Assembly: GCF_018977255.1 (NCBI RefSeq)
Contig: NW_024704743.1
Span: forward strand, 28,088,001 to 28,152,000
DNA: 64,000 nt
Source: Callorhinchus milii
Lineage: Eukaryota
Direction: 5' to 3'
A program made the translations under genes and the position numbers. The notes beneath the pieces were generated by a model that saw nothing but the letters and a program-made list of their open reading frames with translations, was not told where the DNA came from and did no database searches. The first letter of the stretch is position 1, and the number at the start of each line of letters is the position of its first letter. Positions 16,201 through 41,680 of the stretch are shown here, in pieces.

Positions 16201-16360
16201 TTGCACAATAGTGTTGCAAGAAGTGTTGAGGTTTTAGTGGCACCAGCATTCCGACATGAAAGCCACTGATGCTCAACCTAAATACATAAACCAACAATGG
16301 AAGGCAACGGAGTGAAATAATACGTTGCTTTTTTAAAACAATAATCTCTGTTCTTTTCAG

Positions 16361-16551: not shown

Positions 16552-19500
16552 GTATGGAATGCGTTCCCTTCTTGTTTGCTCCCCTCCCCAATCCAGGAAT
16601 ACGTCATCACTTTCCCTTGGTCAGTTTTGTTTCTTATATGAGAAATGTAAAGTACTTTTAACTATTGGTTTTGACCTCAACTGGTGGATGTTTGTGTGGA
16701 ATACAATACCTATATGAACCAGTTAGGCCGAATGATTTGTTTCTGTACTCTATGTAATTCTATGTAACAGTGCTAGAGAACTGATTGCCAGTACATTTAC
16801 CAAACATTGGATGCTGGAAACACCTCATGTATTTCTTGGGCTGAAGAAATGGTTTTAAAACATACAGGATTCTGAGGAAGGGTCTTCAAATTAGCTTTCA
16901 TTTGGAGGCCAATTTTCTGCTCTACCTAAATAGGACTGAAAATGCGGCTTCCAAAATAACAGAGCGAGTCCCAATCAATCTTGAATTTTAAGAAAATGGT
17001 CTTAAATCTAAGGACAACACAAGGCCCTTCAGTCCATCGAGCCTATTCCACCAGTTTATTCTTTTCATTATGTTAATCCCAATGCACCGCCCTTTCACCG
17101 TGCCCTTATTATCTTTACTACTGAAGTGTCCTTCTTTCATTCTTTTAAACATCCAACTGAAACATTTTCAGTGTTCGTATGTAATCTGCAGGGCTGGAAG
17201 ATTCTGTTCACTTTGACCTTGCTGGCAGTTCAACTGCAATGTTGAGACTTCACTTTCTTACTGATTGTCCTGTTTGATGGCACAGTTAAAGTGTTCTCAT
17301 TTTTCAGAACACTCTGAGATCCCATTCTCTGCCATAATCCTCACAGCCAAATGCAGCACTAAGCAAAAAACACAGGAAGAAAGAGAGAGAAAATCAGGTT
17401 AGCATTGCCCAAGACTGCTGCCACAGATCCTTGTACAGAGCAACAACATGCAGAGGCCTAGAGCAGTTTCTCTTTACAGGTCAGGTAGAGATGTAGAGAA
17501 CATAGGGAGAAAATAAAATAACTTACAACTAACATACCCAATCCAGTTACCAAATTTGTATACCTTCTTAGGACTTAATTTGTAATTTATTAATAATACT
17601 TCATAACATGTTATTTTCCAGTAGTAGACATTATTACAGGATATTTTCGAGCCTTTTTCTGCTGTGGTTCACTGGATTTGAAGCTGGGCTTTTACCCCAA
17701 GGTTATACCATTATTTTCCTCACTGCAGTTTCTTATCACCATGAATAATATTTCATGGCTGTTTTAAACTCACTCATGCCGTACCGTGCTCACAAAATAA
17801 TCTTTGCTCTATTTCCGCTGTGCTCCCAAGTGCCCTGACATTTGGGGTGGGGCGGGGAGGGAGAAGGGAGAGAATATTGAATATCTTCACTTTCTAGAAT
17901 TTTCCAGGTCGCTAACTCGCTTCTTGTCCAAGCTTTATGACCTGTCCAACCTTCAGATCCAGTGGGAATGATGTCTGGACGGGCTGTAATTAGCAGGATT
18001 TCTTAATGGGATGTCTTGTTAAAGAATTCCCATTGACTTGTGAGAACTGAACTCGGTAGGTTGATTGCCTCAGACACCTGTGGGTCGATGGGATCCACTT
18101 CTGGGGTTACAAGATGGACTTCCCTCTTGCGCTACTCGGATCCTTTGTTAAGAAATCGGTTAAGAAATACAGCAAATTCGATCCCATGAATATTGTCAAT
18201 TAGATTCACCTTTAGTAACATAGAAGAATGCCAGTATTGCAGAATAAGCCGTGCAAATTTCTATCCTCAAATAGATATTGTTGCAAGTCGAGTATTATCT
18301 CTGCTAAATCTGCCCATAAGTTCCATTTGATGTGAGGATGTGTTTGAAGTTTCTCCTTTGTTTATTTTTCGACTGAATATTTAACAGCATTTCTATTGAA
18401 GTCCTCGCGGTGCTGTTTCATTCCATCTGTTCCTCATTCCCACAATGCTGCACATCTGTGACATTTGCTTGATTCCCCCAAATGGGGAGGGAGACAACAG
18501 CGCAGGCTACAATTAAAGGCTCGTGTGCGGCCCATCCTGCCAAAAGACAGTCTGGGTCATTGAAGAGCAAAGGTCAGAGGTCCAGCCTATCCTCAGTTTG
18601 ACAGGACTAACTCTCATCACATCTGGAGCCAGTTCACTGGCAGGCATCCCCCAGTAGGACTGAAATTATCATATTTATCAGAGCCTCATTCATAAGAAAC
18701 ACTCATCTTGCATTTCACCCCCAATATATGCAGACAATTCACTTTACAGTATATTCTGTGAAGCGATTTGAGACGTCTCAAAGGCATGATAAGGCACTAT
18801 ATCAATTGCAAGGATTATTATTACCTGTAACAAGTCAGATACATTGAGAATCACTTGCTAGCTATCAAAATTATTCCTGATATGAAAGAGACAAACAGCA
18901 TTACATTTCAACCATTCAGTTTCCTTTTTCTTTTTTATAGTTGTTACAATACAATTTACACTTATCTAATAGTGGCTTCCAGATTGGGAGGATGTCCCAA
19001 AGCACTCAAGGATTTATCAGAGCCTATTGGATCCAACTAGAAAAAGAAAAAAAGTGTATTTGATATGGTGATTTATCATGTTGAAATGTCTTAAAGCCCT
19101 TCACAAACAGTTACTGTCAAGCACAGTGACTGTTTTGTGGACAAACTTAGCAGCAAAGACCAACAAACAGCCGTGAGGTGAACAACCAATTCATCTGGAG
19201 GATTAATTGACCAGGACACCAGGAGAGAAACTCCCTTCTCTTTTATAAGTGTAACTCACATGTTTCTCTGGTGTTGGAAATTTCAGAGAGAAACCACCCT
19301 CTGAAAGATGACAGTAACGCAGTCTTGTGTTCATTCCTAAGCAAAAGTGGCCACTAGTCAAACTGGACCAGATTTTCATTTTTCTCGCCTTCTTATCTGT
19401 TTTTATAACTAGATTTTTTTTTTAAAAATTACCTTTTCAGTGTCCTTTGCCAATACTATGACATTTTGGCCATGTGCTTTTTTTAAAAAAAAGGCTGTGA

Positions 19501-20719
19501 TCAATGCTCCTCCATGATCAGTTGATGTGAGGCATACTTTTGCAAGGTGCTGCTGTTCCTGATGTCTTCCATCCCATTCCTCTGTCTCTCTCCTACCCCA
19601 ACAATTGCTTTGTACACACAAAGTGTTCCATCTAAAAGCCCGGGCCAGCAGGACAGATCTTAACTCAAGGAGTATTGAATTTTAATGACAGTCAAGGCCT
19701 GCATTCAAAGTTAAAAAGGGTTTTACTTTTTTAAAGGTGTTTACAGTTTACACTGAAATGGTAATCTATACACTGGTTGATTTGTACCTAAATTGGCTGA
19801 TTTAAGGTTAACAAGTAAGAAACAAGAAAATAACCATATTACCCCCTATGAGTCATTTTTTTCCAGTAGATCTTCTACAGTTTAAGCACTCCATGACAAG
19901 TTGTTGTTATTGTTGCCAGTGCCTTGGGATGCCCTCTTGATGTGAAAGGTGCTACAGAAATGGAGCTTTGTATTGTATCATGTTGTTGTTTTCTACATTG
20001 ATGAACTGTCACTAAGTTATCAGTTTGCGTATATATTGTATGTAAAAAAATCCTATCATTTCACAAACTCTTCTTCACCTGAGTCGTTGACTCATGTTGA
20101 GATACAAGTCCACAGTCTCACATCTTCTGGTACCTCATCCAGCAAAGAGGGTGACACCCACTGTGAATGTCAGTAGCATATATGACTTTGAGGGACATTG
20201 CAGTTCACATCAGTGTTGCCCTCAGCCAATTCCATAGTGGATCACTATCTAGTGACCAGGAGTAGGTACCTCAGCTCACTCCACTCACTAGTCCAGAATC
20301 ACTGAGGTTACAAACCTGACTTAGATCAGCCAATAAAACAGACCAGAAGCCGCAAATTCCATCTAGTGTCATTCTGTAAGACCCTGTTGCTTTAAAATAA
20401 GGCTCGGGTATTAAATTTGGGCATTTCCTGATTTGCAGATCTTAAAATACCAGTACATCTCTTCACTGACACATCGAATGGAAGCCCATTTAACACTCAA
20501 TATTGATCCTAATAATAACCAACAGCTCATTCAAAGGAAATATGGTAGAATTGCTTTCACTCTTACTATAACCTGTTGGCAGTCTATGAAAAGATTGTTA
20601 TAGCCTATTCTGTGAAGCGCATTGAGAAGTCTAGAAGACATGAAAAAGCACTAGCTATATCAAATGCAAGGATTATTATTATTATAAAGAGTGTTTCCTT
20701 CCCTCACTTTTGTTTCTAG

Positions 20720-20912
20720 ATTTCATGCATTTCTGCTGTTTATGGGCCATCCCCCATATGCCATCCGAGAAGCCAGCATTCACAGGTTCTGTAAGATAAT
20801 CAGCGAGTTTGCCCTGGAATATCGCACCACCAGAGAGAGAGTCTTACAGCAAAAGCAGAAGAGAGCCAACCACAGAGAAAGAAACAAGACCAGGGGCAAA
20901 ATGATCACAGAT
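20720..20912 (+). CDS. FHOD3: FHOD3 coding exon, end of FH2: (R)[64 protein letters not shown]
   Basis: Acceptor ttttgtttctag|A, donor GAT|gtaagt; 193 nt (1+192) completes the split Arg codon; EFALEYRT and [15 protein letters not shown] motifs. Confidence 0.96.
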
Positions 20913-23900
20913 GTAAGTTGTGGCATTTGTTTGCAATTAAATATTGACTGGTTTGACACAGGCATGATGGTGACCGAATTGTCCCTTTCAGTGCATAAAA
21001 TGTTTTTGCTTCTATGGCGCTCCAGTGATCTCCTCACCGAGGCTGGTGACCCTCGTGTCAGATGGGGTAAGGAATGTGGAGCACACTCTGCTTTGCAGAG
21101 CACTTCTACTCTAGAAACCATTAGCCCTTCTCAGAAATGAGTTTGGTTTTCAATGTGCTCCCAGGTGAGGAGGCATTGCTGGACAGATCATTAATAAAAC
21201 GATCTGTCATACTCATGTGAAGCTATTCAGTAACCCCAGTGTGATAGATGGGTGATAAGAGTCACGTGATTGCTAACTCTGTTCTGCATTTCTTATTTAG
21301 AAGCTGGAAATATATTGGAGTTTGTTAATTGGACTTGTTAGATCTCATTAACAGGGGATTTTGATGCTGATTGTTGGGAAGAAAGAGCATTTAAGAGAAA
21401 CAGTGAAAAGGCAGAGATGGACTTAAAAGATCTGTCATGATGTAATAAGTAGCAGAACAGGTTCAGTGGGCATGTCAGACCTTCTTTTGTCACTATTATT
21501 CTTCCTCTCCTATTTGTAATGGACTGCAAGTGATTCTCCATTCTGGCACCAGTATTAATGACAGTCAAGCAGAAAACTATTATTCTCTTTCCTTTTTGCG
21601 TGGTGCAGAGGGAGAAATGAAAACAATATGTGAAAAAAGTAAGACATTTTGACTATCATTTAGAGTGTGTGTGTGTTTTAGCATTTCCACATACTCTATT
21701 TGAAGTTTGGGATGAGTGAACTGACCAAGATTTAGATGTTCATTTCTGTTCTGTTTTGCTGATCTCAAATTGAAACCACCTCTGAATTTGAAACAAAAAC
21801 TTCAACTCACCTGCCCCCTCAAAAAAGGAAACATGCCTTATCTATGCCAATTATTGGATATTGAAGTCTTGAGCAAAATCAGACAAACACAGACTTGAAC
21901 ACTTACAATAAAATACAATTTATATTTCATGTAGCTTCCACATCAGGAGTTAGTCTCAAAACATTGACAATGTTGGTTGGGCACTTTTATGGCTTTGAAA
22001 CAAAACCCATATTTATCCACAGAAATATGGAAAAGCTACATTTAGTCTACTCCCTTTCCCTGTTATATCCCCTATCCAAACATTTCCAGTAGATTCAGGT
22101 TCAGGTTTGCGAGTGTCACTACTGGAACACTGTTAAGTAGATGTAGGTGATTTCAAAAGTTGTAGGTGAGTTATTCCCACCACCATGTGGTCCTACCTCA
22201 GCAAACTAACCTTCCTCAGCAAAACTGATGTCTTGAAAATGAGGAATATTAAAGGGACCGAGATAGAAAGTGGGGTTAAACCAAGTGGCTCACCAGTGCA
22301 GATTTAATGGGCTGAATGGTACCGTTTCTGTGATACAGTATGGCATGATTCTATGACAAACCTCACTTGAGGAAACGATAACTCTCACTTGTGTGAAATT
22401 ACAGTAATCTTTGCATTGTGCTCTTGCCTACCTAGGAATAATGTTAAAAAACATACTGAAAATGGGATAAACCAAGGATAAAGTAAATATAATGTGAAAG
22501 GCATTGTACTGAATTACAGAGTTTGACTCTTGACTCAAAGGACACCAAGGCAATTCACCGCCTACTTTATTTGTTGCTCAAAGCCATGTAATCCCCTGGC
22601 TCTTCATATATTTGACCAGTTGGAATGTGTGTTCTACCCAGGAAAATAAATAGATCCAGCCCTAAGTACATAAACATTTAATTTGGCGTTTGTAGTGAGT
22701 AAAAATTCTGGCAGTAGAAACCAAAAAATTTTTAAATTATTTCCTCAAGTACTATTTTAGCATCAAAATCCGGCCTTATTGTTGTGTAACTTATGACCTG
22801 ACAGAGACTGAACTTTGCAGAAGAGAGACATAGAATCAAGGAAACAGCCGATCAAGTCATGACTGATGTTTTACTCTGGGTGAGCCACCTAGTCTAATCC
22901 TACTCTCCTGCTTGCTTCCTCTACCCTTGAATATTCCTCTTTTGCAAGACATCAGGTTTGCTGGGGAAGGTTAGCTTGTTGAGGATGGACCACCAACAGG
23001 AATAAATCATCTACAATTATTTCTGATTCACTGTATTCTATCAACTACTCATAAAGCTGCAGTATGGTGCTCTGAACATCTGCTGCTCAGAGTTGGACAG
23101 TACTGCACTGTATTCTGGTCCTGCCATGATCAATTGTGTGTGTTGTGTGGGTGCACAAATTAGATGATGTTTTGAATTGTACTACTGGTTCCATTTGTAA
23201 GCAGGCAAATTGTTAAAATCTGAATGTGTACTGCTGTGCCAAGATTTTTCACATGGAAATACCAACGTGCACGATAAAGCTGCCAGTGTGGGCCTCCCGG
23301 TTGGTAAGTCAGAAATTTTAGAATAGGAAAAGTCCATTAGCTTTAACCAGCCATTTCCCTTTTGGCTGTACATTGTTACTGCTCAGTATGGAACCAAGGC
23401 ATCGCTCCAAGGAAGTCTCATTTTCAGTTTCTGCTTCATCTGAGTTTAGCTGCACTCAGCTAGCGATGCTGTGGAGGTGCTACAGGCCCAGTTCCAACCC
23501 TCACTCCCCACCATTCCTTTCTAGTCTGGGAGAAAACGAATGAGCCAGAGCTCCTGTGTTTGATGGCTTTTCAGTGATGGGTAAGTCAAAGTCCAAGGAG
23601 GTCAATTGATGAGGACAGGATCAGGCTCAGTTCCACGGTTGAACTCGTTACTTTTGAGATGAACGTGAAGAATAGGCACTTGTGTGAGGTTGGGATGGTG
23701 GGTATGTGTGAAAATGTACCTCATTACCTGAAAAATATGAATAAATTACAGGGAAGCACAACAACTTTGCTCACAAATATAGTCAATTCACTTTACAGTA
23801 TATTCTGTGAAGCGCTTTGAGACGTCCAGAAGACGAGAAAAGCACTATATCAAATGCAAGGATTATTATTATTTATATATCACTCTTGACTCGGGTAGCA

Positions 23901-26900
23901 TCTCAGAGCGCTTTAAAGTGCATTTCTTTTTTTCCTGATGATTTCCTCAGGTACCATTTTAGTATCAAAATCCAGACTTGTGTAAATTGTGACCTGAGGG
24001 AGGCTGAGGTTTGCAGACGAGACCCATACAATCATAGAATCAAGGAGACTGGCCATTCAGCCATTAACAACAATAGCTTGCATTTATATAGGGCCCTTCA
24101 CACGGATACTGTCTTCGAGCATTTTAAAGTACATTTTTCGAAAAAAGGTAATTCGTTCAAAAGTTCAAGCACTCTGGGACGCTATCGTGTGTGAGGGACG
24201 CTATATAAGTTCAAGTTGTTGTTGTACCTAGTGGCAACATTTGCTTGTAAATCTTTTTGCAAAACAATTAAAAAACACACATTTTGGCAATACACCATCC
24301 CATGGCTCAATAGTGACTGGTTGGAAAGAGCTAATTGTTCTGTCAGTAGAGAATTTGCCTTCTCGATTGTTATAAAGTTCATTTTTTTTCTAAATCAATT
24401 CACAGATTGTGAAGTTTTCATTTCATCTTTCTATGCTCTGCAGCAGATAAACTCTGGAAAATAAACAATAATTTGCATTTATACACAGCCCTTTATGCGA
24501 AGTAGAGTCTCAGAGTGCTGAATAGTGGCAGAGTTTGATGGAGATAAAGGGAAGGTGAGGAAATTCGTCAGGTGCGATTTGAAGACGGGTAAAGAGGGGT
24601 CAAGAGAGAGGGATTGAGACAAGGAGATCAGGAGGTAAACATCAAGCAAAAGACTTAAAAGCCTGTCTAGGAACACAAATTTACAATTACATCATCTCTA
24701 CTTCAGGAGTAACAAAGATGGCAGTGATCCAGGTCTGAAGAGGAAGATTCCACTTCCCCGGAAGGGAGCACTGCCACCTAATGGTCATTTACCTGGCATA
24801 AATGAACACAACGCTATACATAAAACATTGCAAACACACTCTTCACATACCCACCTACCTACCCACCAACTCTTCTCACAGCGACAAACAGATACCTCGT
24901 ACACACTTCACACATTGCATTGCAAGCCTGCAATTCGCCTCTACCCACAAAAAGTGCCACGTGTTTGAGGCCAGCAAGCAATAGGTTGCAGTGCATGTAT
25001 ATATAGCTCAGTAATTCTCCTATCCATGGCTTTGCACACTTTACACAGTAACTGGGCCTACTATTCATGATAAGGCACTATATCAATGCAAGGATTATTA
25101 CTACTCTTCACTCCCTTCACACACGCACTCTTGCCACACACACCTCACATACACAACACACACAAACACACACACACTGCACTGCTTGCCTGCTATTCCC
25201 CTGCCCCGCAAAGAGCACACAGTGACATGGACGTGCTTTGTACCTTTCTCCTCTCATGCACATACCACACAACAATACAAGTACATGGTGTACCTGGCAT
25301 TTTCTCTTTCTCTCCGCACAGTCACGAGTATCTTTCAGCGGATTACTGAATAGCAATCAGGAGTGGAAACACTGGCTGAATTTCCTCTGTTAAATTCCAG
25401 AAGTGAGTTCTAAATCAATTCACAGATTGTGAAGTTTTTTTGCCTCATCTCCAATACAACTTCACTCCAACTTTTCCTAGACAAAACACTGGAGAAAAAT
25501 AATATACTTTTCATTGAATGCATCAAATCTAACCTTCTCCATCTTTGGAATATTGGCTGGAGTCTGTTATATTTCACTGGGTACTGTTCTATGCCTTGGA
25601 ATCACAGAAATTTGCAACACAGAAGGACCTTGTTTGGCCCATCGTGCCTATGTCACCATAATGTCACCAGATCATTAAGCACTGATGCTCCTTGGTGAGA
25701 TAAATGCTGTCTGCACTACCAGTGCTGTAAATCTCCAGATGNAAAAAAATGAGACAAAATACTCCAACCAACATAACGTATTTCCAGCTGAGATTGCGTG
25801 CATATGTACTATGCACACAGCTGTGAGTGATATATTGCACACCAGTTAACCAGCAGGGATCCATGCTGGTGGGATTGTTGGTTAAAGAGAACATTTGCTT
25901 GTTCTCTACACATAGTTATCAATTACCAAATATGGAATCATATCATAACAAGTGTTCCAACTCACTGATACTGCAATGCCTCACTGATGATAACTCTGCA
26001 AGCACTGACTCAGGCTCTCTCATTGCAAACTTTGGCCTTGTGACTCCTATTGCAAAGATTCTCAGGAATAAGCAAATGTATGCATATAAGTAAGACTGTA
26101 TCCAAAATGTTTACAATACTGCTGCATAAATTGTCAAGGGAGGGAGCAGAGAGCCAAGACAAATTTGGGCAGGGACTGGGGGAAGCAAACTGAATTTATT
26201 CAGTTACAGGCTTTATGGGGTGTGGGGTGTACACTGCCACATGTAACAAAGCTCTGGTGTCTCTTTTGTCACTGTTGACTCTTGGGGCTCTTAGTAATCA
26301 TACTTATTTTTTGAATTTGCCTCTCTGGTCAACTATTCCATTCAAACCTGAACGACTGCATATTTGTTAATCATCAGAATTCACTCAGTGATCTTAGCCA
26401 TTGCTGACAATCTGATTATTCTTTAGGAACCAAATGTCCTCTTCAGCTTTCATAATCCACACCTGTTTTCTATCTTGGAACATCTGTGAAACAGTTTTGC
26501 AACCTTCTGATGTGAAACCACTGAAATTAGAAAAACGTCCAGAGCTAAAAAACCACCTCAAATGCATTTTATGTTTGAAGACACAAAGCCTTTTAATTTT
26601 TTTTATCTCGTTGCAGAATCTCCCCTCTCAAACATTTGAGAGTTAGCAAATTCAGTCACTTTGGAGTGGCCGATAACTTTATCCAAAGGGAAATTTAAAG
26701 GCTGGGTGGGAAGAGCTAAAGTAATTGCCACACTTTTGTCTCCCAAGCTCAGTACCAGGAGGATAGTGTTATTCTCAAAGTGCACAGCATAATAGCTTAT
26801 GACTCAGTTACAGACCAGACTATGGCTTTACCCACTAGGCAGTCAGGGATCAGTGTTTGTAATCTCTGAGGGAAATTTGGTTCCTATTATTTATTCCAGA

Positions 26901-27278
26901 ATTTCTGTATGAAAATTGCTGACAGAGAGAGAGATGTAGGATAGCAATTCTCAACCTGGTTTTTTAGCACCTTATTATATCCTCCCAACGTGAAAGGCAC
27001 TATATAAATGCAATTTATTATTGTTGATATTTTAAACAGGGTCTTAACTAATTGGTGGTGAAAATTGTTAAATTCAGCCTGAATTCCGAAGCGGGATTTT
27101 CTCAGTTCTTAAAAAGAGCTGCTTTTGAAATATTGAAAAATCTGTTGTGTGCCTCACTCGTCTAAATTTATAGAACATAAGAATTGTGTGAAAATTTGGC
27201 TCATAGGTGTGGTTTAAGTGCTCTGAGATGCCGTCCGGCGTGAAGGCCTCTATATAAATGCAAGTTGTTGTTGTGGTT

Positions 27279-28418
27279 GGTGGTGACATCATCCGCAGAC
27301 ATGGAGTTAACTTCCACATGTATGCGGATGACACCCAACTCTACCTTTCCTCCTCTACTCTCAACTCCACGACCACCGATGTCCTGACAGCCTGTCCGAC
27401 ATCGAGTCCTGGACGAGAGACAACTTTCTTCAGCTCAACGTGCGAAAAACCGAGGCCCTCCTGATTGGCTCACGTCAGCGCCTCCGCACCTCAGGCGCTG
27501 ACACCATCAGCATCCAAGGCTGCGCTCTCCACCTCTCAAAGCCAGTCAGGAACCTCGGCGTTTTGTTCGACCCTGAGCTGTCCTTTCTCCCTCACATCCG
27601 CACCACAACTGGCACCGCCTTCCATCACCTCCGGAACATCGCCAGACTACGGCATTACCTCACCCCTCACGCTGCTGAAACCCTGGTTCACGCCTTTGTC
27701 ACCTCAAGGCTGGACTATGGGAACTCTCTCCTCGCCGGCCTTCCCGGCACCTCCCTCCACAAGCTGCAGGTCATTCAGAACTCTGCAGCTCGTGTACTGT
27801 CCCGCACCAGGCTTCGCGACCACATCACTCCCACCCTCGCTCGCCTCCACTGGCTCCCCATTCCCCAGAGGATTGATTTCAAGATCCTCATCCTCACCTA
27901 CAAGGCCATTCACGGCCTTGCTCCCTCCTACCTCTCCGACCTACTATCCCCCTACCTACCTGCCCGTACCCTCCGTTCCTCTGGCTCCGGTCTGCTCCAC
28001 GTCCCCCGCCCCAACCGCCCTACCATCGGTGGTCGGGCCTTCAGCCTCTCAGCCCCCAGGCTCTGGAACTCCATCCCCCAGTGCCTTCGCCTTGCTTCCT
28101 CCCTCTCCTCCTTCAAGGCCGGTCTCAAAACCTTTCTCTTTGACCGAGCCTTCAGCTCCCCTCTCGACTCTCTTCTCTCGACTCTCTTCCCCCTCCTCGC
28201 TCCCTCCCTTCCATCCCCTCACCCTGACCATTTCCCCCCTCCTCGCTCCCTCCCTTCCCTCCCCTCACCCTGACCATTTCCCCCTCCTCGCTCCCTCCCT
28301 TCCCTCCCCTCACCCTGACCATTCCCCCCCTGCTTGGGTTATGACCCAACTGTGCAGCGCCTTGGGACGTCCTCCTGACGTGAAAGGCGCTTTATAAATG
28401 GAATCTTGTTGTTGTTGT
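27279..28418 (+). mobile_element. L2-clade LINE, 5'-truncated, relatively young
   Basis: FHMYADDTQLY RT motif; ORF 27440-28273 with RNLGVLFD, SRLDYGNSLL, LQVIQNSAAR and LHWLP; C-rich 3' UTR, stem-loop and (TTG)n tail. Confidence 0.95.
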
Positions 28419-29451
28419 GGTTCAACTAGGAATAAACAGTCACTATGCTTTACAGTAAATTGTGTGAAGTGCTTTGAGATGTTTCAATGATGTGATAACA
28501 CGCTATAACAAGGAATATTATTATTATACGCTAGTATGGTAGCCATTCTCCATGAGTGTGCTGAGATCGGGATTTGACCTGCTTTACTAGATCTGCTGAG
28601 CACTAAATGCAAGTCAAAGCTTGAGATGAAGGCTTCTGTCACAGCCCATGCATTTATCCAGAAATGTGATTGAAATTCCACATCTCCTACAACCTACCAT
28701 TCAGTTGGATCTGCAGAATTGTTCAGATCACATTGCCTAGTGTTTTACTGATCAGAGGAGAAGACCCTCTGTCTATGTGGCAAATTTCAAAGTTCAACAA
28801 CTTGTGCAAGGGAGATATGGAGCTGCTCCCACCCAGGGGTTATGCACATATTTCAATCACTGCTGCACAGAGGCAGTTGAGTCAGTGATAAGAGGTAATC
28901 ATTGATGATTATCACCAGAAGAATAACTAGGGAGGTAAGATTTGTTTTTGTACATAGAGAGCTGTTAGATTGTGAAATGCTTTACCACAAATGGCTCTTC
29001 AAGTCAATCTTTAACAGTATTCAAGAAAGAATTGGATAAACTGTTAAAATTAATAATATTAGACATGAGATTGGAGGAGATAGCTCCAGTGGGGGAATCA
29101 GCAAAGACATCATGTGCTGAATAGTTTCTTTCTGTGCTATAAACATTCTAAAATTTTATGAAGGGTATTTNAAAAAAGGAAATCTGTCAATGCACAATCT
29201 CTAAGGAGTTGCAGAGATACTATCACATGAGTGAGATTTTACCAACAAAGCACTGCTAGTTGCTACCCTAAGCATTTGTCTGTAATATGAGGTAACTGAG
29301 ATGCATGTCTCATTGATCCCTTGTAATCTGGCCAATTTTCCATTGTCTTTTGTAACTTGTGTTGACTCTTCATTTCTCTATGTATATCATGCTTTTTCCT
29401 CTTTGCTTTCCTCTCTCCCTCCCACCCTCCCTTTCTCCGCTTCCTTTCTAG

Positions 29452-29475
29452 ACTGATGATGAAGATGATGGTGAG
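29452..29475 (+). CDS. FHOD3: FHOD3 24-nt alternative micro-exon encoding TDDEDDGE (T(D/E)5XE motif)
   Basis: Long pyrimidine tract (about 29393-29449) then tag|ACT GAT GAT GAA GAT GAT GGT GAG|gtacgg; phase 0-0; lies between the ...KMITD and TGKFS exons, where the mammalian striated-muscle T(D/E)5XE exon lies. Confidence 0.92.
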
Positions 29476-30284
29476 GTACGGTTGCTGGGTGGCATTGTGC
29501 TGGATGTTTGTTTGCCTTGTGTTATCACCAACACCGCCTTTACACTAACGACAACATGAGAAGCAATTGATGGCCGGCCTCTTCTGTTCCATTGCATCTT
29601 TTAAAACCGCATTAACCTATTGGCCTTGTTCTTGAGTGCTTTAACAGGCGCGATTTCATGAGTATTAACATCTGGGGAGCTGGTGATCCACTAATTTGCC
29701 GGCGATCATCATGACAGTTTTTGATTCCTTCCAGCTGCCGAGGTCTCTATTGGCACTGGCTGCACATATCTATCCAAGTCTTTCATGTCAGTACTCTAAT
29801 CTGATAGTGTCTGCCTGCATTTCCTTTTCATGGGATGTTACACTATAATTGTACCCTTTCCTACATTTGCTTCCAAGTTCAAGTTTGCTTCCCCGGGCGA
29901 TTATTTTGTAAACTACCCTTTCATCTCTGTTAGTTATCTTAAGGAATAAGCAGAAGGCTCCTGCATTAGCCAAGTGGGCAAAGAGACTGCACAGTGTAAC
30001 ACTGAGCCATACAGAAAGTTAACTTCTGAACTCAAACAATTGTTTTCTGTTGGAGTCCCCCAGTGATTGTGCCCGGTTGAATTTATGCTCCTAAAACGTC
30101 ATAATTTCTTGTGGAGAGGCAGGATTTCCTATGGTGTAGGATGGTAACTGAGCCTTGCTGACTGAACTCACTGGTGTCTGTCTCATCATTGTCTGGTCTT
30201 GTCACCTCAACCGCTATTTGATAATGTGCCATTACAGAACTATTACATGTTTGCTGAATTTGCCTACAAATACATAAGTCAAGA

Positions 30285-30600
30285 CTTTGAGCTCGCAGTC
30301 CAGAATGACACTCCAATGTAGCACTGGTGGAAGGCTGCATTGTCAGAGCTACACTGTCCTTCAGATAACAATTTTAAACCAAGATCCCGTCTGCCTGTTC
30401 AAAGGAACATTAGAAATCCCATGGCAGTATTTGAAAAGAGAAGGGAGTTCTGATGTCCTGACCAACAATTCCCCAGATAAAAAGTTGATCGCGCACTTCA
30501 TTGCTGTTTGTAGGTCACTGTTTGTGGGAAACTGGCTGTTGCACTCCCCGACAAATGCACAGTCACTACACTTCACAGTAAATCCTGCGAAGTGCTTTAT
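30285..30600 (+). mobile_element. Older Deu-domain SINE, decayed
   Basis: taaaccaagatcccgtctgcctgttc...aaatcccatggcagtatttgaaaagagaagggagttc; related decayed minus copies at about 13960-14350, 32030-32290 and 56935-57290. Confidence 0.65.
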
Positions 30601-31410
30601 CAATTGTATGGCTTGCTGCTACACCTTTACCTATTCAGCTATTAGGACAGGACTAATGATCTTAAGGAATGAAATGCAATTATTGATTGTCTGAAATCAA
30701 ACGAGAAAATTAATGGATAAACACACCAGGCTGCTCAGTAGCTAATCAGAGTTGTATATCTTGCATTGCCATCGATGTTAGGTACTTCTGACTTCCACAA
30801 TGACAGCATACTGAGACTCCTTCAAGCAAGACAATCTCTGTGCGGATGCTAGCTTGCAAGGAGAAATGGCTTAACCCTTTTCAAAATCGTCCTTGAACTT
30901 TTAAAAACAAGTTGATTGACATTCCACAGAGCTTTGATGGGGTACATGAAATGTTTTTCAGATGATTTTAAAAAAGAGTAGAATAATGTTTTAAAATTGC
31001 AACAAATTGTCAATCCTGTTATGATATGCATTAGAGGCCAAACTTCTCATGGTTTTAGCCTTAAGGCCAATATCTCAAAATTTAAGAATGCATATAATTT
31101 TGGAGAAATTCTTAAATTCGCTTTTAATGTAGATGCTGCTTTTCTGCAGTTTTCAAGTGATTTTTGAACAATTTTCCAATTTTTAAGATATTTTCAATTT
31201 TGAATAAATTGCTTAAAGTTAACAGCATGAGGAATTTGGGATTTTTAATGCCCCCTCTCCCATCCCCACCCCACCCTACTGCATACACACCGCATATGTT
31301 CATAGCATGCATGTGCATCAGTGGGTCAATAGAAGATTGCAGTGCCATGCCACTTGTTTTTTGGCCTGCTGAAGGAATGATAGTAAATGTGCTTCTGATC
31401 CATTGTACAG

Positions 31411-31591
31411 ACAGGAAAGTTCTCCACCAACACCACCAACGCCTCGAGCAGCAGACAGCCACAAGGACTCCAGTACGCAGAAGAGGCAGCAGAACACGAG
31501 AACATGAAAGCCGTACTCAAAACGTCCTCGCCCAGCGGAGAGGTCGCTACCTGTGTGCCAGGCACGCGCACACGAACAAGAGCCAACAGAG
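31411..31591 (+). CDS. FHOD3: FHOD3 coding exon: TGKFSTNTTNASSSRQPQGLQYAEEAAEHENMKAVLKTSSPSGEVATCVPGTRTRTRANR(G)
   Basis: Acceptor cattgtacag|ACA, donor G|gtaaga; 181 nt, ends in phase 1; AAEHENMKAVLKTSSP is characteristic of FHOD3. Confidence 0.93.
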
Positions 31592-32369
31592 GTAAGAGTT
31601 GTCACAGCGCAGCCATTCATCCTGCGCCAGAGATGGAAAGCTTAAGTTTGTGCCACAACCAAAGGGTCCCTATGTTGCTATTGCAGAAAATCTCTGATTT
31701 GCAGGACAGTTCAAGAGTATAAACTTTTCCCTTGCAGCTCTTGGTGTGACATGTGTCTTTGAGTATGAAAACTGCCAGTGAACTTGTAGCATTACTAAGC
31801 TGTGATTCAATGTGTGGATGAGAATCTAAGATGCTGTGTTTGCCTCTGGCTAGAGGGAGACATAATGTTAAGATTAGAGCTAGGACAGTTCAAAGTGAAA
31901 TTGGAAAATAATTCTTCACAGAGTGGTGTGAAAATGTGGAATGTATTGCTCCAAATGTTGTCGAGGCGAAATCTATTGGGATGCTTAAAAAAACAGACAC
32001 GTGGACAGACAGCAAATACTGGGAAGTGATGATATTTGTTACACCTGATATAGCACTTTTCACGTCAGGACACCTCAAAGGTCTTCACAGAATTTACTGT
32101 GACGTGGAGTGACTGTGTACTCTGTGGATGAAGGCAACAGACAATATTGTGCACAACAACGTCCCACAAATAGCTATGAAGTAAATGACTGATTTGAGTT
32201 TTTTGAGGGTTGGTGGGTTTGTTGGCCAGGACACCGGACAAAACTCCCTTCTCTTATTGAATAGTGCCATTCTTTATGGGATCTTTAACATACATGTTAA
32301 CATGTGGAGTCTTTAACATGTGACTCCATGTAACATCTTTAATATGTGAAGTCTTTAACATCTTTAACA

Positions 32370-32730
32370 TGTGGAGTCCTGTCAGTGGTTAGAGCACTCG
32401 CCTCGCAAGCGGGAGATCTGGGTTTGATTCCTGACAGGGCAAAACGTTGGGCAAGTTTGCTTAATCCACACGCCTCTTTACCTAGCAGTAAGTAGAGTCC
32501 GGTTGTTAGTTGATTAGCAGATCGCTTTTCCGGGGATAATAATTTCTTCATAAATAATAAAAGGTCACTAAATCCACAAATATTTGTGGGACACTGCTGT
32601 GCACAATTGGCTGCCGCATTTCGCCCACAAAATATACAGTCAATTCAATTTAAAGTATATTCCGTGAAGTGCTTTAAGACGTATCGAAGACATGATAAGG
32701 CTCTATATTAAATGCAAAGATTATTATTAT
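32370..32730 (+). mobile_element. tRNA-derived SINE (Deu-like body, L2-like 3' tail), near full length
   Basis: A-box-like cagtggttagagc, B-box-like ggtttgattcc, body ttgtgggacactgctgtgcacaattggctgccgcatttcg, tail caaagattattattat. Confidence 0.9.
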
Positions 32731-32923
32731 ACACCTGAATAGGCGGATGGGACCCCAGTTTAACATCTCATCCTAAGGACACGGTATAATGGAAAAGACA
32801 GGTAAATGGGATCAAACAATCTGCCATGGTCTGATAAACTAGTGGAACAGGTTTGAAGGACTGAATGGCCTCCGGTTCCTATTGCTGAACCCTCACCCTG
32901 GTGATGTGCCACTCCCTCTCTAG

Positions 32924-33085
32924 GCCGTGTTGGATCCTGGAACCCGGGTAACGATGATTCTCCAAATGCCACAGATGATGCTGCAGATGAAATTATGGAC
33001 CGGATTGTAAAGTCTGCCACCCAAGTGCCAAATCAGAGAGCGGTGCCGAGAGAGAGGAAACGCTCACGAGCAAACAGGAAGTCTC
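32924..33085 (+). CDS. FHOD3: FHOD3 coding exon, DAD region: (G)RVGSWNPGNDDSPNATDDAADEIMDRIVKSATQVPNQRAVPRERKRSRANRKS(L)
   Basis: Acceptor ccctctctag|GC, donor TCT C|gtaagt; 162 nt, phase 1-1; DAD core DEIMDRIV and basic cluster RERKRSRANRKS. Confidence 0.95.
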
Positions 33086-36000
33086 GTAAGTTATTGAAAT
33101 TTCTCTCTTGCTCCTTAAATGTTACGGTCGGGATGTAAAAAGGGCTCCTTCGCTTCACTCCCGAGTACAGCAGCATCTCCATTATGTGGTATTGGACGTT
33201 GGCATTGGAGAACTTCATGATGCTTAATACATGCTGTTTGCCAATGCTAACTTTTCATTCCACATTTAGAATGAAAGATTCTATCAATCCTACTGTAAGT
33301 GGCGAATTCAGTATTTGCTAATTTGAGAATTTTAGGGCCCCTCCCCCACTGTTAGGAGCCATTCCGAAAATCATCTTAAAATGCCTCAAATGATAGTTTT
33401 TCAAAGTATTAATTTACAATTGGTGCACATACAAACAGTGCAATTATGGGCAGTATTATAATATGGCCATTTGTATAATTCTTTAAATTTCCTCCTAACA
33501 CAAACTCAACACATGTCGACCTAAAAAATTCTCAGATGCCAAACGACTGCATTTGGAATTTGACCACAGTCTCCATTTGTGAGAAGTGACATGAAAAATC
33601 TGTTCAACACATCAACCATGAGTGTTTAATAATATCTCTTCCTAACATCCTTTCCTCCTAGCTGATGAAATATCTCTGCTGACAAGTGGCTCCTGCAGGG
33701 AGGTGGGATGGGATTCAGGAATTTAGTGAAAAACTCAAGAAAAGCAAGGGAAGAAAGACAAGTTACATTAATTCCCGCAGCTGGGTTTTGACAAGCATCT
33801 GGAATTATTTCCTTACTATAGTTATGCACGCCAGTCAGTCATTAGCAAATGGGCATGTTGGATGCAACCTTATTCTGTTACCTTGAACGGTTTGACCTTA
33901 ACGGGAATATTTTCTTCTTGTAAATTAGAGCTGTTTGATCACTGAGAGTGAATAACAATGAGCAATGAGGCTGTCAAAATATTCATTCGGTCACTCCCAT
34001 GGCATTTCAGAACTGGGTAGCTGAAACAACATGAAAATGATTTCAAAATAACTCTTGACGAATTTATTTTCATAAAGTCACTCTTTGTGCTTCAATGCAT
34101 TTCACCCTGACATTCTTTGGCTGAGAATGTTAGTAGACAAACTCTTCTCAAGACTTTTACCAATACCACTCTGGAAGTGGCCAAATTTGCTGGAGTGATC
34201 TGATGCAGTTTGGCTTACAGAACTGCCCTTTCTGCCTGGTGATTCATCCAATATCATGCGCTCCCTGTATCTTTACAGGCTGTACTGCTCCTTGTGCCGA
34301 AAGTCTATATACAAACAGACAGCAAGAGGTGTAGGTGCTCCCAGGCCTCTCTTATTGCACTCTGAAGCTTGTTACTAAACAGTGGGCGTAGGTATCTGTT
34401 TCAATGTTCTTGCCACCAAGGGGGAGATGCGTTGGTCAGCTGCTATCAGAAACCTCCCCTGAACTGTGACATTCCATGTATTTTGGTTGGTCGGATGTCA
34501 AACCCAACAAATTTAAGAGTACAAAACAGAGTGAGAGTTCCACATAACTATACATAGTAGTATACTATAGGTCGTATTGTCTGTAATAGAATGTACACAT
34601 TCTCCGAGAAGGAATTTATTCTGCTTACCTAATTTTGGATAGTATTAGACACAGGTTGACAAGAGCCAAGGCATGGGAACCCCAAAGTGTGTATTGGGGT
34701 ACTACTGTTGTTTAACCAGCTGAAACCCCCATTGACTGCCCTGTCTGACAAGCTTCCCGCTGCTTCAGCGGGTAGGTCCACAGTACCCATTAGGGCTTTG
34801 GCTGGCAGGCTTAACAGGAACCGAGTGGGAAGAATTCCAGTGACTAATCTGTCCCTACAAGTCCTGCAGATGCGCCCTGGAGTACTATAGGGCAAGCTCA
34901 TAAATCGGACATCCGTTTCTAACGTTTTGTTGCCAAAAACATCACCAGGGAACCAACTCAGTATCAAGGAGACCATGCTTGCCTCCTCCCCAAGGTGTAT
35001 GATCATTGGTTGTCATTTGACATTCAACAAGCACATTCATTCCATGGTCTAGTGGTGTCACAACTCTCAGCTGCAGGGTTTTCTGTGAGAAAGTATCCAC
35101 TACAGTTTCAGTATTAGGGAGAGATGCACTTTGTCAAGGGTGTCTCAGGGTGTTATAGTGAAGGGTTCTGTTTTGGGAACACTCTTTTCCTTTCGCAAAC
35201 GCACCCTGCCAGAAAACTGGAAACCAGACAGTAACACACACTAAAAAAACGCTTTTGGAGGAAAGCTGCCCAATTTGTATGACTTCACCGCAACAGACAA
35301 ATCATGGTGTTGAAAAGGGAATCAGATTTCAGCATTTGAAGGAGGTGTGATTCATTTGGCTATTGTGGAGACATGTCTCCTTTTAGGATTAACAGAGTTT
35401 ATTAGGATTTCACAAAAACAGACAAAACATAATGCCAGGTCTGTCAGACATTATCTGCAACAATCCAAGCAAATCCACTACAGGAATGAATTCCACCATC
35501 TGAGCAGATAGAAAGCAAACTAGGATGGTCCATGAACTATAATTCTTACAGTTCTTATTCCCTTGGAATAAAAAGACTGAAAAAGGTGATTTTTTTTGAG
35601 CGAACTTTCTTGATTCATATAGCCTGCATGTGTCAAGGATCTAATGACAGAAAGAGGACACCTGGTTTAGTGAAGATAGATTCATTGGACCTATGCCTTC
35701 AACCCCAATATTGCTGCTGGATCCTCTTTGCTTCTCCAGGGAATGTATCTTTTGTTCCTGTTTCAATCTGTCACCAGTTGGGTCTCACTGGCCCAGCCAT
35801 TTATTGCCAAGAAGGGTTCTCTCTCTCTCCCTCTCCCTCCCTCCCTCCCTCCCTCCTTCTCTAATCCATTCCTTTCCATCTTCTCCTCCACTCCTCTTCA
35901 CTGCTCTATGTCACCTTATTTGATCTCCAAGTTATGAATCAGTTTACTGAGTCACGTGAATGCAGTTCAATAAAATAGATTTATACATTCATATCTCATG

Positions 36001-36849
36001 TGGACTTAACGGTAGAGCATCCTTTTGGTACAAGTGAGTAAAGCTTGGGAATGCTACAGAATAATTAGTTTGCTACGGTCTTCCCCATCACTCAGAAATT
36101 GTTTCCTGGGAAGAAGACCGGTTAGAGCAGTGAGAAAGCCATAGTCCAACTGTGATGTGGGGCGGGGGGGGGGGGGGGGAGCAATTGTCTGATTACAGTT
36201 AGTCTAATTGGGCATAATTTTCTGAGGCGATAATTGTCATTGGTGAAAATTATAATATGATGTATCTTTCAGAATTTTATCCTCTTCACCCACATCTAGT
36301 TCCGCTTCCTGAATACCTTGTTGTTTTCAGGTCGTTTTTAGTCTCACGGAGATCTGTTATTTTAGGTGTCTTCTCCCTTGCTGCTCTGTTGATATAAGTT
36401 ATGTGAATGCCTCATCCATGTGTTTTTCTTAAGCTAGAATTTAGGGCTTCAGCCTTGAATTGCCTGAGTCTGGGAATAATCACTGGTGGCTAAGGACTGC
36501 TTCGCTAAGTCTTTGCCATCTCAGACCCTGAGGAAACAAACAGCACATGTAGCAACTGACCAGCGCTCCTGGAATATGGGTAGTCAATCGCACAGTTGCT
36601 TTTGTTTTGGAAAACCCGTAAAAATAGATTGCAGCAGCATTTCTAATGCCTGACATCCATTGTCTTCACTCAACTTTGCATGCAACTCATGTTAAGTACA
36701 GTTCAGCCTCGCTCACAGATTTCAGGATAAATCAGTTGATGGCAAAGTTGGGAGTGTGACTCTTCTCAATGGGTATTAACAGTACCAGTATAATACAATT
36801 TATATTTATTCCTGAGAATCGAATTGTATTCCCTAATGAGATAGCGCTC

Positions 36850-37693
36850 TCTCCTTTCAGCTTCTACATATGAGACCGAGGCTCTCCTGATTGGCTCCCG
36901 TCAGCACCTCTTCACTTCAGGCGCTGACAGTATCACCATCCATGGTTGCACACTCAACCTTGCTAAGCCAGTCCAGAATCTTGGGGTCTTGTTCGACCCT
37001 CTCCTTTCTACCTCACATTCACACCATGACCCACTCTGCCTTCCCCACCTCCGCAATGTCGCCCGGCTCCGACACTGTCTCACACCGCAGGCCGCCGAAA
37101 CCCACATTACATTGAGGCTCGACTGTGCAAACTGACTGCTTGTCGGCCTCCCCAACTCCTCCCTCCACAGGCTGCAGATCATCCAGAACGCTACAGCTCG
37201 TGTCCTCTCCCAAACTAGACTCCGTGACCCTATCACCTCCATTGTTGCCCAACTCCACTGGCTTCCCATCTCACACAGATACAGTTCAAGATCTTGGTCC
37301 TCACCTTCAAAGCTCTCCATGGTCTTGCTCCCTCCTACCTCTCCGACCTCCTAACCCCCTACCATCCTGTTCGGTCCTTCTGCTCAGCAGGCTCCGGCCT
37401 GCTTCACGTCCCCCGCCTTGCTTGCCCCACTATAGGTGAGTGGGCCTTCCGCCACTCTACACCCACCCTCTGGAACTTCATCCCGCAGTCCCTCCATCTT
37501 GCCCCCTCTCTCGCCACCTTAAAGACCCACCTCAAGACCCTCCTCTTCGACCGTGTTTTCGATATCCCTGCTTGCCCCCCTGCCTCCCCCTTCCCCCACC
37601 CCGACCCTCAGCTTGGGTCCGTAACTCTGTCTGTCCAGCGACTTGGGACGTCCTCCCGACGTGAACGGCGCTATGTAAATGTAATTTTGTTGT
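36850..37693 (+). mobile_element. L2-clade LINE 3' fragment, decayed
   Basis: Frameshifted homolog of the 27279-28418 copy (TFKALHGLAPSYLSDLL); ends cagcgacttgggacgtcctcccgacgtgaacggcgctatgtaaatg. Confidence 0.9.
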
Positions 37694-37739
37694 ATTATTT
37701 TCACAAATCTCTGTAGGTGGTTCTGATAAGCAGCCACTC

Positions 37740-38020
37740 ACAAGATTATTTGGGTGAAGAAGGCCCTTCGGTCCATCCAAACTCTATCCTCCAGAACATC
37801 CAACCTACCATCTCCCCATCAAACTGCTTTTTAAATGAGTCCAGTGTCCTGGCCTTTACCATCTTTCCTTGCAATCTGTTATAGTTGTCAATTACCCTCT
37901 GTATAAAGAAAAACTTCCTGGTAACTGTCGCGAAATTGTCCTTTACAACTCTAAACCTAAGTCCTCTTGTACTACTGTCTGGTTGCAATCTAAAGTATTG
38001 TTCTGGGTTTACTTTTCTCC
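37740..38020 (-). mobile_element. CR1 3' fragment
   Basis: Minus ORF ...STRGLRFRVVKDNFATVTRKFFFIQRVIDNYNRL...LDSFKKQFD, the typical CR1 ORF2 C-terminus. Confidence 0.8.
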
Positions 38021-38460
38021 ACGGCTCCCCCCTCTTCACTTCTGTCCTCCTGATAAACCCAGGCTACGCCAGGTGCAATATTCTCAATGAATGTATATTA
38101 TATTATCAGACTGTTTGAAAACTTTTTTTTAAGGGTGAAGAGAAATGTAGGATACTAAACTAAATAGTCAATAAATATTTAGATTAGTGCTTATCTACCA
38201 GATGAGAATAAGTACTAGATCTCTACATGAAATACATTCCTATCTATATAGCTATGTTAAAGCGTGGACTATCTAAATGTATAATTAGGAACAGGAAAGG
38301 AGTAGGCTATATGCAAGTCGAGGCTGTTCTTCCATTAGTTTATTAAATCATGACAGATCTTTCAATCCCATTTCCTTCCTTTTTTCCATATCCGTTAATA
38401 CCCTTAGTTCCAAAATATATATAATCTATCTATGTAAACCGATAAAGACAGTGTTCTGTA

Positions 38461-38829
38461 TGTGGAGTCTTGTGGCTCAATGGTTAGAGAACTCGCCTTG
38501 CAAGCGAGAGACCTGGCTTCAATTCCCACAGGGCGAAATGTTGTGCAAATTTCCTGACTCCACACTTGTTTGTTTAACTAGCAGTAAATAGGAACCCGGT
38601 TGTTGGTCAATTCGTGGATCGCTTTTCCAGGGGTAATAATTCCTTATAAAAAATAAATTGGTCCCCCATCCATGATTGTTTGTGAAACACTGCTGTGCAC
38701 AATTGGCTGCCATGTTTCGCCCACAAAATATACAGTCAATTCACTTTACAGTGTTTTCTACAAAGAGCTTTGAGACGTCTCGAAAACATGATAAGGCGCT
38801 ATATCAAATGCAAGGAATATTATTATTAT
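38461..38829 (+). mobile_element. tRNA-derived SINE, near full length
   Basis: Same family as 32370-32730: tRNA-like head, Deu-like body, (ATT)n tail. Confidence 0.9.
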
Positions 38830-40693
38830 CCGTCCATACATTAAACATTACCTTTTCCCACAGGTTTGACTTCTTTAGTCCAGCAGTTGTGGTAACTGGT
38901 GGAAGCTTTGGGTGGGGGAAGAGTAAGGACTTGTCTCTTACCTACTAGCAAGCTAGTGCATTTTATGAAATCTAGGTTAATGGAACTGAGCTACGAAAAT
39001 TGTGACCCACATTGCATCTGTTAAAGGAACAAGCTTTAGTGATGGATCCGGGACAAAAGTGTTTAAGGGGTAATTGGGAAGAATTGGCTGTTTGATTAAT
39101 TTGAAAAATTTAATGTGTTTATCGTTATTGTGTGCTGGATATTTCTTTCGTTATTTTCTCATCCAGACAGTTTTAATGTGTAAATAAATTTCGCCCTTCC
39201 TAGAATAAGTCTTCAGCAATCCAACCTACCAACTGCAGTTATTGTAATTCAGTAGACACAGACATCTAGATATCACTGGGCTCTGCCATTGGTTTGAGAA
39301 CAAATCCAGTCATTTGATTTGATATATTAATCTTTGCAGGACTTGTCCTTTAATAGAGTCAAATCTTTCAGCTAATGTCTACAGCTATGGAAGGGACTTG
39401 TCCTCAGCACAAGGCAAATTTACTGCCAGGTTAATCTGTCACTGCAATAAATCCAATAATCCATTCAGGATGCCTGCTATTTAGGCCTGTAAGTAATATC
39501 CGTAACTGATTGAGTCAGATGCCTTTAAACTATTATTTATTTGTTTCCCAGCCTGTCTTTGGTGGGATAGGGTTAAGTGCTGCAACCTTGCATTACACAG
39601 GGAATGTTTGTCCAAACTATACTGTAACAAAACACATCCATGCAAAATGCTGGAGAGAAAGACAAATGCCTCAGAGTGCTTCACTTGTGCAGAGAGAGTG
39701 GGAGTTCCAGGCATTTTTTCAGCTAATACTAAAATTGCAGTTCATATTGTGCCCTCTACATTGCTGAATGTTGAGGCAATACATAATTCTTGAATTTTCC
39801 TTCATATTTGCATTTTGTTTTTTGTAGCACATGACTTCAATGATTTTTATGCAGTAATTAATTTGAATTCATCCCTCACTGCAATAAGTCCAATAAATGT
39901 TAACGGACAATAAAATCAGATCAATAAGTCCCTTTCTTAACAGCAGGTCTCCCTACAGTTACCTCATCTAGTTTTTCTTGGCTGTTACAGCATTTCTTTC
40001 ACACTCTTCACTCTCATCACAAAATGCAAATAAGTACTATATTGGAGATAATATTTCTAATAAAGAAACAGGAGCCTGAGACTCGCGGGAAACCTTGAAA
40101 TTCCACATAGTCTCAGCCTGCAAGACCACTGAGTCTAAAAATTTAAGATCATGCAGAATTGTGAAAAATTCTTAAATTCAATTCTAATTTGAAAGCCACC
40201 ATTCTACAGTTCTTGAAAGGAGCCCGCACCTAATTAAAGCTGAACTGTTTTTCCACAACTCTGCCCAGTGATTCAACTTTAAGACAACGTATTCTTCAAG
40301 CTGAAGATGAGTTAGAAGGTCAACCTCAAGTATCTATCTCTCTACAATAGATGTAAAGGAAGCTTAGCTTTACATTCTTGAAAAGATATATTCAGCAAAA
40401 ATTAAGACATCCTATCAAATCAGCATAAATTGAGGATTATCCCTAGAAGAAAAAAGGTGTAAGAGTTTTTAACACAGAGCATTGTTGCAATATTCATATC
40501 TTACTACAAAAAGCTGTTGAAGCCGAGTTCATAACAAGATTTGAAAATGATGAATACTTGAGGAAAAATAATATTAAAGGGGCAGAAAGACTAGGAAAAT
40601 AAAATTAGGACAGATCACTCCAGTGAGCAAGCTAACACCAGCATAGACCCATTGGGTCAGATGGCTGCTTGGTGTGTTTTGAATGTTTTCTAG

Positions 40694-41494
40694 CAACAAC
40701 AACAACAAGATTCCATTTATAGAGCGCCTTTCACTTCGGGAGGACGTCCCAAGGCACTGGACAGTTGGGTCAGGATCCGAGCAGGGGGGAAATGGTCAGG
40801 GTGAGGGGAGGGAAGGGAGGGAGCGAGGAGGGGGTAGAGAGTCGAGAAGGGAGCTGAAGGCACGGTTAAAGAGAAAGGTCTTGAGACCGGCCTTGAAGGA
40901 GGAAAGGGAGGAGGTGGCGAAGGCACTGGGGATAGAGTTCCAGAGCCTCGGGGCTGAGAGGCTGAAGGCCCGGCCACCGATGGTAGGGCGGTTGGCGCCG
41001 GGGACGTGGAGCAGACCGGAGCCAGAGGAACGGAGGGTATGGGCAGGTAGGTAGGGGGATAGTAGGTCGGAGAGGTAGGAGGGAGCAGGCCGTGAATGGC
41101 CTTGTAGGTGAGGATGAGGATCTTGAATTTGATCCTCTGGGGGATGGGAGCCAGTGGAGGCGAGCGAGGGTGGGAGTGATGTGGTCCGAAGCCTGGTGCG
41201 GGACAGTACACGAGCTGCAGAGTTCTGAATGACCTGCAGCTTGTGGAGGGAGGTGCGGGAAGGCCGGCGAGGAGAGAGTTCCCATAGTCCAGCCTTGAGG
41301 TGATAAAGGCGTGGACCAGAGTTTCAGCAGCGTGAGGGGTGAGGTAGTGCCGTAGTCTGGCGATGTTCCGGAGGTGATGGAAGGCGGTGCCAGTTGTGGC
41401 GCGGATATGAGGAAGAAAGGACAGCTCAGGGTCCAACAGAACACCGAGGTTCCTGACTCACTTTGAGAGGTGGAGAGTGCAGCCTTGGATGCTG
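40694..41494 (-). mobile_element. L2-clade LINE 3' fragment, same subfamily as 27279-28418
   Basis: Minus ORF DPELSFLPHIRATTGTAFHHLRNIARLRHYL...SRLDYGNSLL; (CAA)n tail at 40694. Confidence 0.93.
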
Positions 41495-41597
41495 TAGAGC
41501 AAGTAGAGCATTCCCCCATCAGAAAAAAAACTATAAAATCACAGTACTCTTGACACCAACCCTTTCTGATTATCTTTTTGTCTCTTGGTTTTGACAG

Positions 41598-41680
41598 TAA
41601 GAAGAACACTAAAGAGTGGCTTGACACCAGAGGAGGCCAAAGCACTGGGTCTGGTGAACACCTCCGAGATGCAGGTGTGA
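41598..41680 (+). CDS. FHOD3: FHOD3 terminal coding exon: (L)RRTLKSGLTPEEAKALGLVNTSEMQV*
   Basis: Acceptor ttggttttgacag|TA completes CTA (Leu); stop TGA at 41678-41680; resembles the FHOD3 C-terminus as I recall it (SLRRTLKSGLTPEEARALGLVGTSELQL). Confidence 0.95.

Follow-up and report, generated by a model that had tools for sequence, protein, structure and literature searches.

Does the elephant shark Callorhinchus milii use the acidic micro-exon known from mammalian FHOD3 and, if so, how is it spliced and how old is it? The 64,000-nt stretch of its genome analysed here (contig NW_024704743.1, positions 28,088,001 to 28,152,000; the window) contains the 3' part of FHOD3, in which a sequence-only reading had noticed a 24-nt exon between the exons ending in KMITD and beginning with TGKFS. 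The mammalian T(D/E)5XE exon, number 26 in human and 25 in mouse, was described by Iskratsch et al. 2010 (PMC3002041). According to the accessible text of that paper, it is conserved from zebrafish to human in seven orthologues, creates CK2 sites with the target residues T1474 and T1476, and is included less in failing hearts; phosphorylation is linked to myofibril targeting and release from p62, and T-to-A mutants mislocalize. Table 1 of another study, likewise available in part (PMC3324543), puts inclusion at 90-100% for heart and skeletal muscle of the mouse, compared with 0% for embryonic brain and kidney.

Translation of the window yields TDDEDDGE from a phase-0 24-nt exon at exactly the coordinates in Table 1. 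It is preceded by TAG and followed by GTACGG, giving in-frame AG/GT ends. Over the ~40 nt upstream, its acceptor has 95% pyrimidines, more than any other of the 621 AG sites of intron 20913-31410, where the runner-up reaches 0.86. The micro-exon also takes first place among the 350 in-frame candidates (AG..GT, 6-60 nt) of this 10.5-kb intron. Of the 515 AG-N24-GT segments that the window contains (269 on the forward and 246 on the reverse strand), no other codes for at least four acidic residues. The AG-free zone before it spans 150 nt, compared with 20-64 nt for the gene's nine other exons in the window, and of the 4228 gaps from one AG to the next in the window only two are at least that long. 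The phase-0 exon with its pyrimidine tract and GT-AG ends, as described in the sequence-only reading, is thereby confirmed as real and beyond chance. Use of the donor-like ATG/GTGAGG inside the exon would give an out-of-frame exon of 19 nt; we rejected it because both inclusion contigs described below fit 24 nt and not 19. Predicted RNA folding of positions 29290-29720 is less stable than in 100 of 100 shuffles (z +2.46), and a structural switch is therefore not proposed.

Table 1 Features of the FHOD3 locus in the window.
Feature	Position	Strand	Basis
Cassette micro-exon, TDDEDDGE, residues 1450-1457 of model P0009	29452..29475	+	sequence, gene models, spliced contigs
150-nt AG-free zone, long polypyrimidine tract, TAG acceptor	29301..29451	+	sequence scan
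5' splice site GAG/GTACGG	29476..29481	+	sequence
Competing donor-like ATG/GTGAGG, five bases inside exon end	29471..29476	+	sequence
QKI-type motif ACTAAC, +69 downstream, putative inclusion enhancer	29544..29549	+	motif rule PMC10202634; function putative
QKI-type motif ACTAAT, +215 downstream	29690..29695	+	motif; function putative
TGCATG, RBFOX-type, -150	29302..29307	+	consensus; weak
Upstream flanking FHOD3 exon, FH2 end, ...TRGKMITD then GTAAGT	20720..20912	+	sequence; holds first CK2-target threonine
Downstream flanking FHOD3 exon, CAG then TGKFS...	31411..31591	+	sequence
FHOD3 3' part in window	8677..41680	+	ten-exon model
FHOD3 coding exons 1-5 of window	8677-8835, 9484-9666, 9996-10115, 13119-13280, 16361-16551	+	ten-exon model
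FHOD3 coding exons 6-10	20720-20912, 29452-29475, 31411-31591, 32924-33085, 41598-41680 (stop)	+	ten-exon model

The assignment to FHOD3 of a cartilaginous fish was correct: the source is C. milii, nine UniRef entries named Callorhinchus milii FHOD3 match the upstream flanking exon at 100% identity, and in our tree the gene groups with gnathostome FHOD3 (support 96/94). A Pfam search with the two flanking exons alone gave no match. With the micro-exon, the ten-exon model encodes 485 residues, and five C. milii proteins in the databases end in precisely this sequence; without it, the 477 residues are identical to two other C. milii proteins. TDDEDDGE is present in six of the eleven C. milii FHOD3 models examined, including RefSeq XP_007887959.1 and UniRef A0A4W3JZB3; of the remaining five, four lack it and one continues into the intron. 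The micro-exon is therefore already annotated in C. milii, contrary to the suggestion that it may be missing from automated annotation. Several FHOD3 models (P0002, P0021, P0045, P0046 and others) read through past the donor after KMITD; these are likely annotation errors.

Splicing was read from contig pieces only, in four of 14 listed runs, none of them recorded as RNA and all with coded tissue labels (X4, X7 and X8 from study P2, X6 from study P1), over positions 20600-31800; the contig-piece table alone was used because depth bins and joint tables were swamped by intronic repeats. In X4 and X7, a contig follows the upstream exon to 20912, continues with 22 unplaced letters and resumes at 31409. 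Bases 31409-31410 are AG, identical to the last two bases of the micro-exon, and the alignment breaks off at 31408, a position at which the intron has C and the micro-exon G. The insert, known by its length and end, is thus 24 letters long and ends as the micro-exon predicts. X6 and X8 each yield a contig in which 20912 is followed immediately by 31411, with no gap. Since the contigs cross the 10.5-kb intron at its GT-AG ends, they derive from spliced RNA. Inclusion contigs occur in two of the four runs, both from P2, and skipping contigs in the two others, one from each study; such contigs drop rare forms and carry no inclusion level. The acidic FHOD3 exon is alternatively spliced in C. milii, and both outcomes that were to refute the sequence-only reading, inclusion nowhere and inclusion everywhere, are excluded. 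Run X6 also differs from the window at 20867 by a synonymous C>T change in the third position of an Ala codon, probably an allele.

The introns of FHOD3 contain high-copy interspersed repeats at 20650-20690, 23780-23870, 27000-28400 and 30550-30600, which collected thousands of outside contigs. A pyrimidine-rich tandem unit of 45-46 nt is present at 28187-28331 and again, on the opposite strand, at 50953-51055, and a 22-nt minisatellite (15.4 copies, 86% matches) occupies 54969-55306. Among 56 open reading frames scanned, the sole match was a reverse transcriptase fragment on the reverse strand at 4077-4706 (Pfam RVT_1, E 1e-19), which is probably what remains of a LINE-type element in an intron.

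The C. milii exon and the T(D/E)5XE exon both comprise 24 nt and eight residues, sit at the FH2-end junction and have AG/GT ends. TDDEDDGE fits the T(D/E)5XE pattern exactly, with both target threonines and cassette splicing as in the known exon, in agreement with the proposed orthology; position X is G in C. milii and V, A, I or others elsewhere. The insert (residues 1450-1457) lies 31 residues past the Pfam FH2 match at 1055-1419. A structural model of the lamprey protein has the corresponding insert at the frayed end of helix 633-684, the last FH2 helix, at a low pLDDT of about 48-57; solved FHOD structures gave no match. The CK2 recognition pattern is S/T-x-x-D/E. In a scan for this pattern, the consensus sites TDTD and TDDE are found only with the insert, and none is found in the skipped form, in shark and lamprey alike. 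Both CK2-target threonines, which correspond to T1474 and T1476 of PMC3002041 as numbered in its accessible text, are thus conserved in the shark at the level of the predicted protein, as the sequence-only reading had proposed.

What the exon does in mammals is less uniform than that reading implied. An effect on sarcomeric targeting is indeed a result of PMC3002041, but to call it established is an overstatement, as the available text of PMC3324543 finds the exon dispensable for sarcomere localization and actin assembly. The firmer human result is the effect on actin itself: in purified fragments, the insert tightens barbed-end binding ~30-fold and lowers nucleation by ~30%, according to the accessible part of PMC12263155, whereas targeting to the sarcomere is disputed in print. 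The human exon also changes in heart development, as reported in the available text of a preprint (10.1101/2025.03.21.642423). In a search of largely open-access literature, we found no paper on the acidic FHOD3 exon in elephant shark or lamprey. The exon is not discussed in the accessible text of a lamprey FHOD paper (PMC4601495), nor does it appear in the portions available of a zebrafish fhod3 preprint and PMC11263117. The main text of a splicing preprint covering 20 species, C. milii among them (10.64898/2026.09.05.749416), contains nothing on FHOD; its supplements may list the exon.

The octapeptide TDDEDDGE is identical in models from Heptranchias, Mustelus, Cetorhinus and Rhincodon, and variant inserts are found in sturgeon, bowfin, teleosts, amphibians, turtles, birds and mammals. 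In a tally of 17 distinct inserts of eight residues, which leaves out one 7-mer and one 9-mer, position 1 is T or S, positions 2-5 are acidic and position 8 is E in every case. In the teleost FHOD3 models P0019, P0056, P0134 and P0136 the insert starts with S instead of T, and one of these inserts has seven residues; one turtle model has an insert of nine.

A search of 50% representatives found the first lamprey protein. TDDEEAAE occurs at the same junction in a protein named Petromyzon marinus FHOD3, in a second Petromyzon model and, with 98% identity to it, in a protein of 835 residues encoded on a contig of 5979 nt, while a Lampetra fluviatilis FHOD model is without the acidic insert, giving three lamprey records with the insert and one without. 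These FHOD3-like proteins (S4RN63, XP_032813322.1; Lampetra CAM9485246.1) resemble the C. milii protein in the 8-residue acidic insert, its junction and both CK2 consensus sites, and in Lampetra also in the existence of a skipped form. They differ in that TDDEEAAE has four acidic residues after T, compared with five in T(D/E)5XE. As judged from lamprey protein records and not from DNA, their possession of the insert dates the exon to before the cyclostome-gnathostome split and makes it as old as the vertebrates. An origin at least in the jawed-vertebrate ancestor, as put forward earlier, is therefore upheld, but this bound was too young. No hagfish protein was recognised among the matches listed in our FHOD searches.

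Which paralogue the lamprey gene represents is less clear. In the best tree (FH3+FH2) it is joined to FHOD1 with support of 83/86, which is not firm, and the alternative placements with FHOD3 (p-AU 0.21) and outside both (0.13) are retained; trees on FH2 alone likewise do not settle its position between FHOD1 and FHOD3. According to the available text of PMC4601495, lamprey orthologues of both paralogues are clearly defined. With matching upstream-exon queries, the acidic insert was present in 30 of 120 FHOD3 matches and 0 of 120 FHOD1-type matches, counted on cluster representatives, which can hide isoforms. The FHOD1-type set comprised frogs, sharks, C. milii, gar, lungfish, turtles and birds, a few of them labelled FHOD3-like. 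The acidic insert is absent from all 25 long FHOD proteins of non-vertebrate type among those listed. Amphioxus FHOD (Branchiostoma P0184, P0187, P0265) has an insert at the same junction that is present or absent and in this respect resembles the vertebrate exon. In contrast to the latter, it is 17 residues long, contains neither an acidic run nor an S/T-x-x-D/E site and shows no sequence likeness. Mayfly Fhos models differ by six residues at the FHOD junction.

Motifs around the exon provide a lead to its regulation. Two copies of ACTAAY lie within 250 nt downstream of the micro-exon and none within 300 nt upstream. None of the eight other internal exons is followed by this motif, two copies occur together in 39 of 6375 sliding windows, and the last FHOD3 exon has one copy at +34, in the 3' UTR. 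In the accessible text of PMC10202634, downstream ACUAAY marks QKI-activated exons in striated muscle, Fhod3 is among the QKI-dependent genes, and in the mouse heart Fhod3 changes to an isoform of the cortex type when QKI is lost. Of the two motifs near the C. milii exon, only that at +69 falls inside the 200-nt window used there. The exon shares the downstream ACUAAY with this class; the Fhod3 exon concerned is not named in the text available. The two motifs, together with the 150 nt free of AG before the exon, suggest that a muscle switch of the QKI type is at work, which we treat as a lead only because ACTAAY belongs to a set of about a dozen motifs that we screened. Splicing of Fhod3 also responds to RBM24 (PMC6538757), and RBM20 and PTBP1 act on Fhod3 exons 12-14 (PMC7230170), as far as the accessible passages go; those passages on FHOD3 that were available to us do not name a regulator of the acidic exon.

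Among the other motifs, TGCATG is the RBFOX-type consensus, and its occurrence here is weak evidence because it is also found upstream of two of the nine other exons. Consensus motifs for MBNL, PTB/RBM20, CELF, NOVA and RBM24 were either missing or differed from background by no more than about twofold. In targets of SRRM4, a UGC lies shortly before the 3' splice site. The TGC nearest to the acceptor of the micro-exon is at -48.

We consider it probable that the elephant shark exon is the orthologue of the T(D/E)5XE cassette exon, controlled by a QKI-type muscle switch, with a role in barbed-end binding and CK2 phosphorylation, and older than the split from lampreys. The short exon, with its long AG-free, pyrimidine-rich acceptor, would be skipped by default, and binding of a QKI-type factor downstream would promote inclusion, which in this fish would be enriched in heart and skeletal muscle. 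If the mammalian reports apply, the included form would bind actin barbed ends more tightly, nucleate less and be a CK2 substrate that escapes p62.

Short exons arise easily by chance, and the intron offers 350 in-frame candidates, so a cryptic pseudo-exon, or a gene model taken over from other species and not spliced in C. milii, had to be weighed. It deserves practically no credence: the micro-exon is the first-ranked candidate and the only acidic 24-mer in the window, and the identical peptide in four elasmobranch genera together with the 24-letter inserts in spliced contigs refutes it. A real alternative exon could instead follow a neural SRRM3/4 programme or another non-muscle pattern in this fish, with muscle specificity acquired later. 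The frame-preserving length of 24 nt falls within the 3-27 nt size class of neural micro-exons, the pyrimidine tract is long, and the runs with inclusion carry coded tissues only, all of which would be compatible with such a pattern. We nevertheless regard it as unlikely, given the distance of the nearest TGC from the acceptor, the QKI-type motifs downstream and, in the accessible part of PMC3324543, inclusion in 0 of 10 clones from mouse embryonic brain.

The orthologous, muscle-enriched cassette exon could also have a conserved task that is purely electrostatic, in barbed-end capping and nucleation, with CK2 and p62 incidental or specific to mammals. This is compatible with the account we prefer, and the ~30-fold difference in barbed-end binding between purified human fragments, the disputed role in targeting and the invariant acidic residues all point towards it. 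Mislocalization of the T-to-A mutants argues against it, as does the first residue, which alternates between the two phospho-acceptors T and S throughout the 17 inserts while the upstream T is kept, a pattern that fits selection on phosphorylation. On balance we find a purely electrostatic task rather improbable, though less so than a neural pattern.

Taken as a whole, the interpretation offered by the sequence-only reading is partly supported. The exon was already known, as were its biology in mammals and its presence in the C. milii annotation. Our analysis adds a date before the lamprey split, beyond the zebrafish-to-human range in the accessible text of PMC3002041, absence from the FHOD1-type proteins examined, and a candidate control by two QKI motifs in a slow-evolving genome. 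The exon sits in a cardiomyopathy gene and its function is disputed; natural variants such as the less acidic lamprey version offer a means of testing charge against phosphorylation. More speculatively, and with doubt outweighing confidence, the acidic CK2 exon may predate the FHOD1/FHOD3 duplication, having originated on the vertebrate stem at a junction of older optional chordate inserts, with the QKI muscle switch kept since, the exon lost from FHOD1 and kept in FHOD3. If so, loss of the micro-exon would be a step in the division of work between the paralogues into sarcomeric and non-sarcomeric roles.
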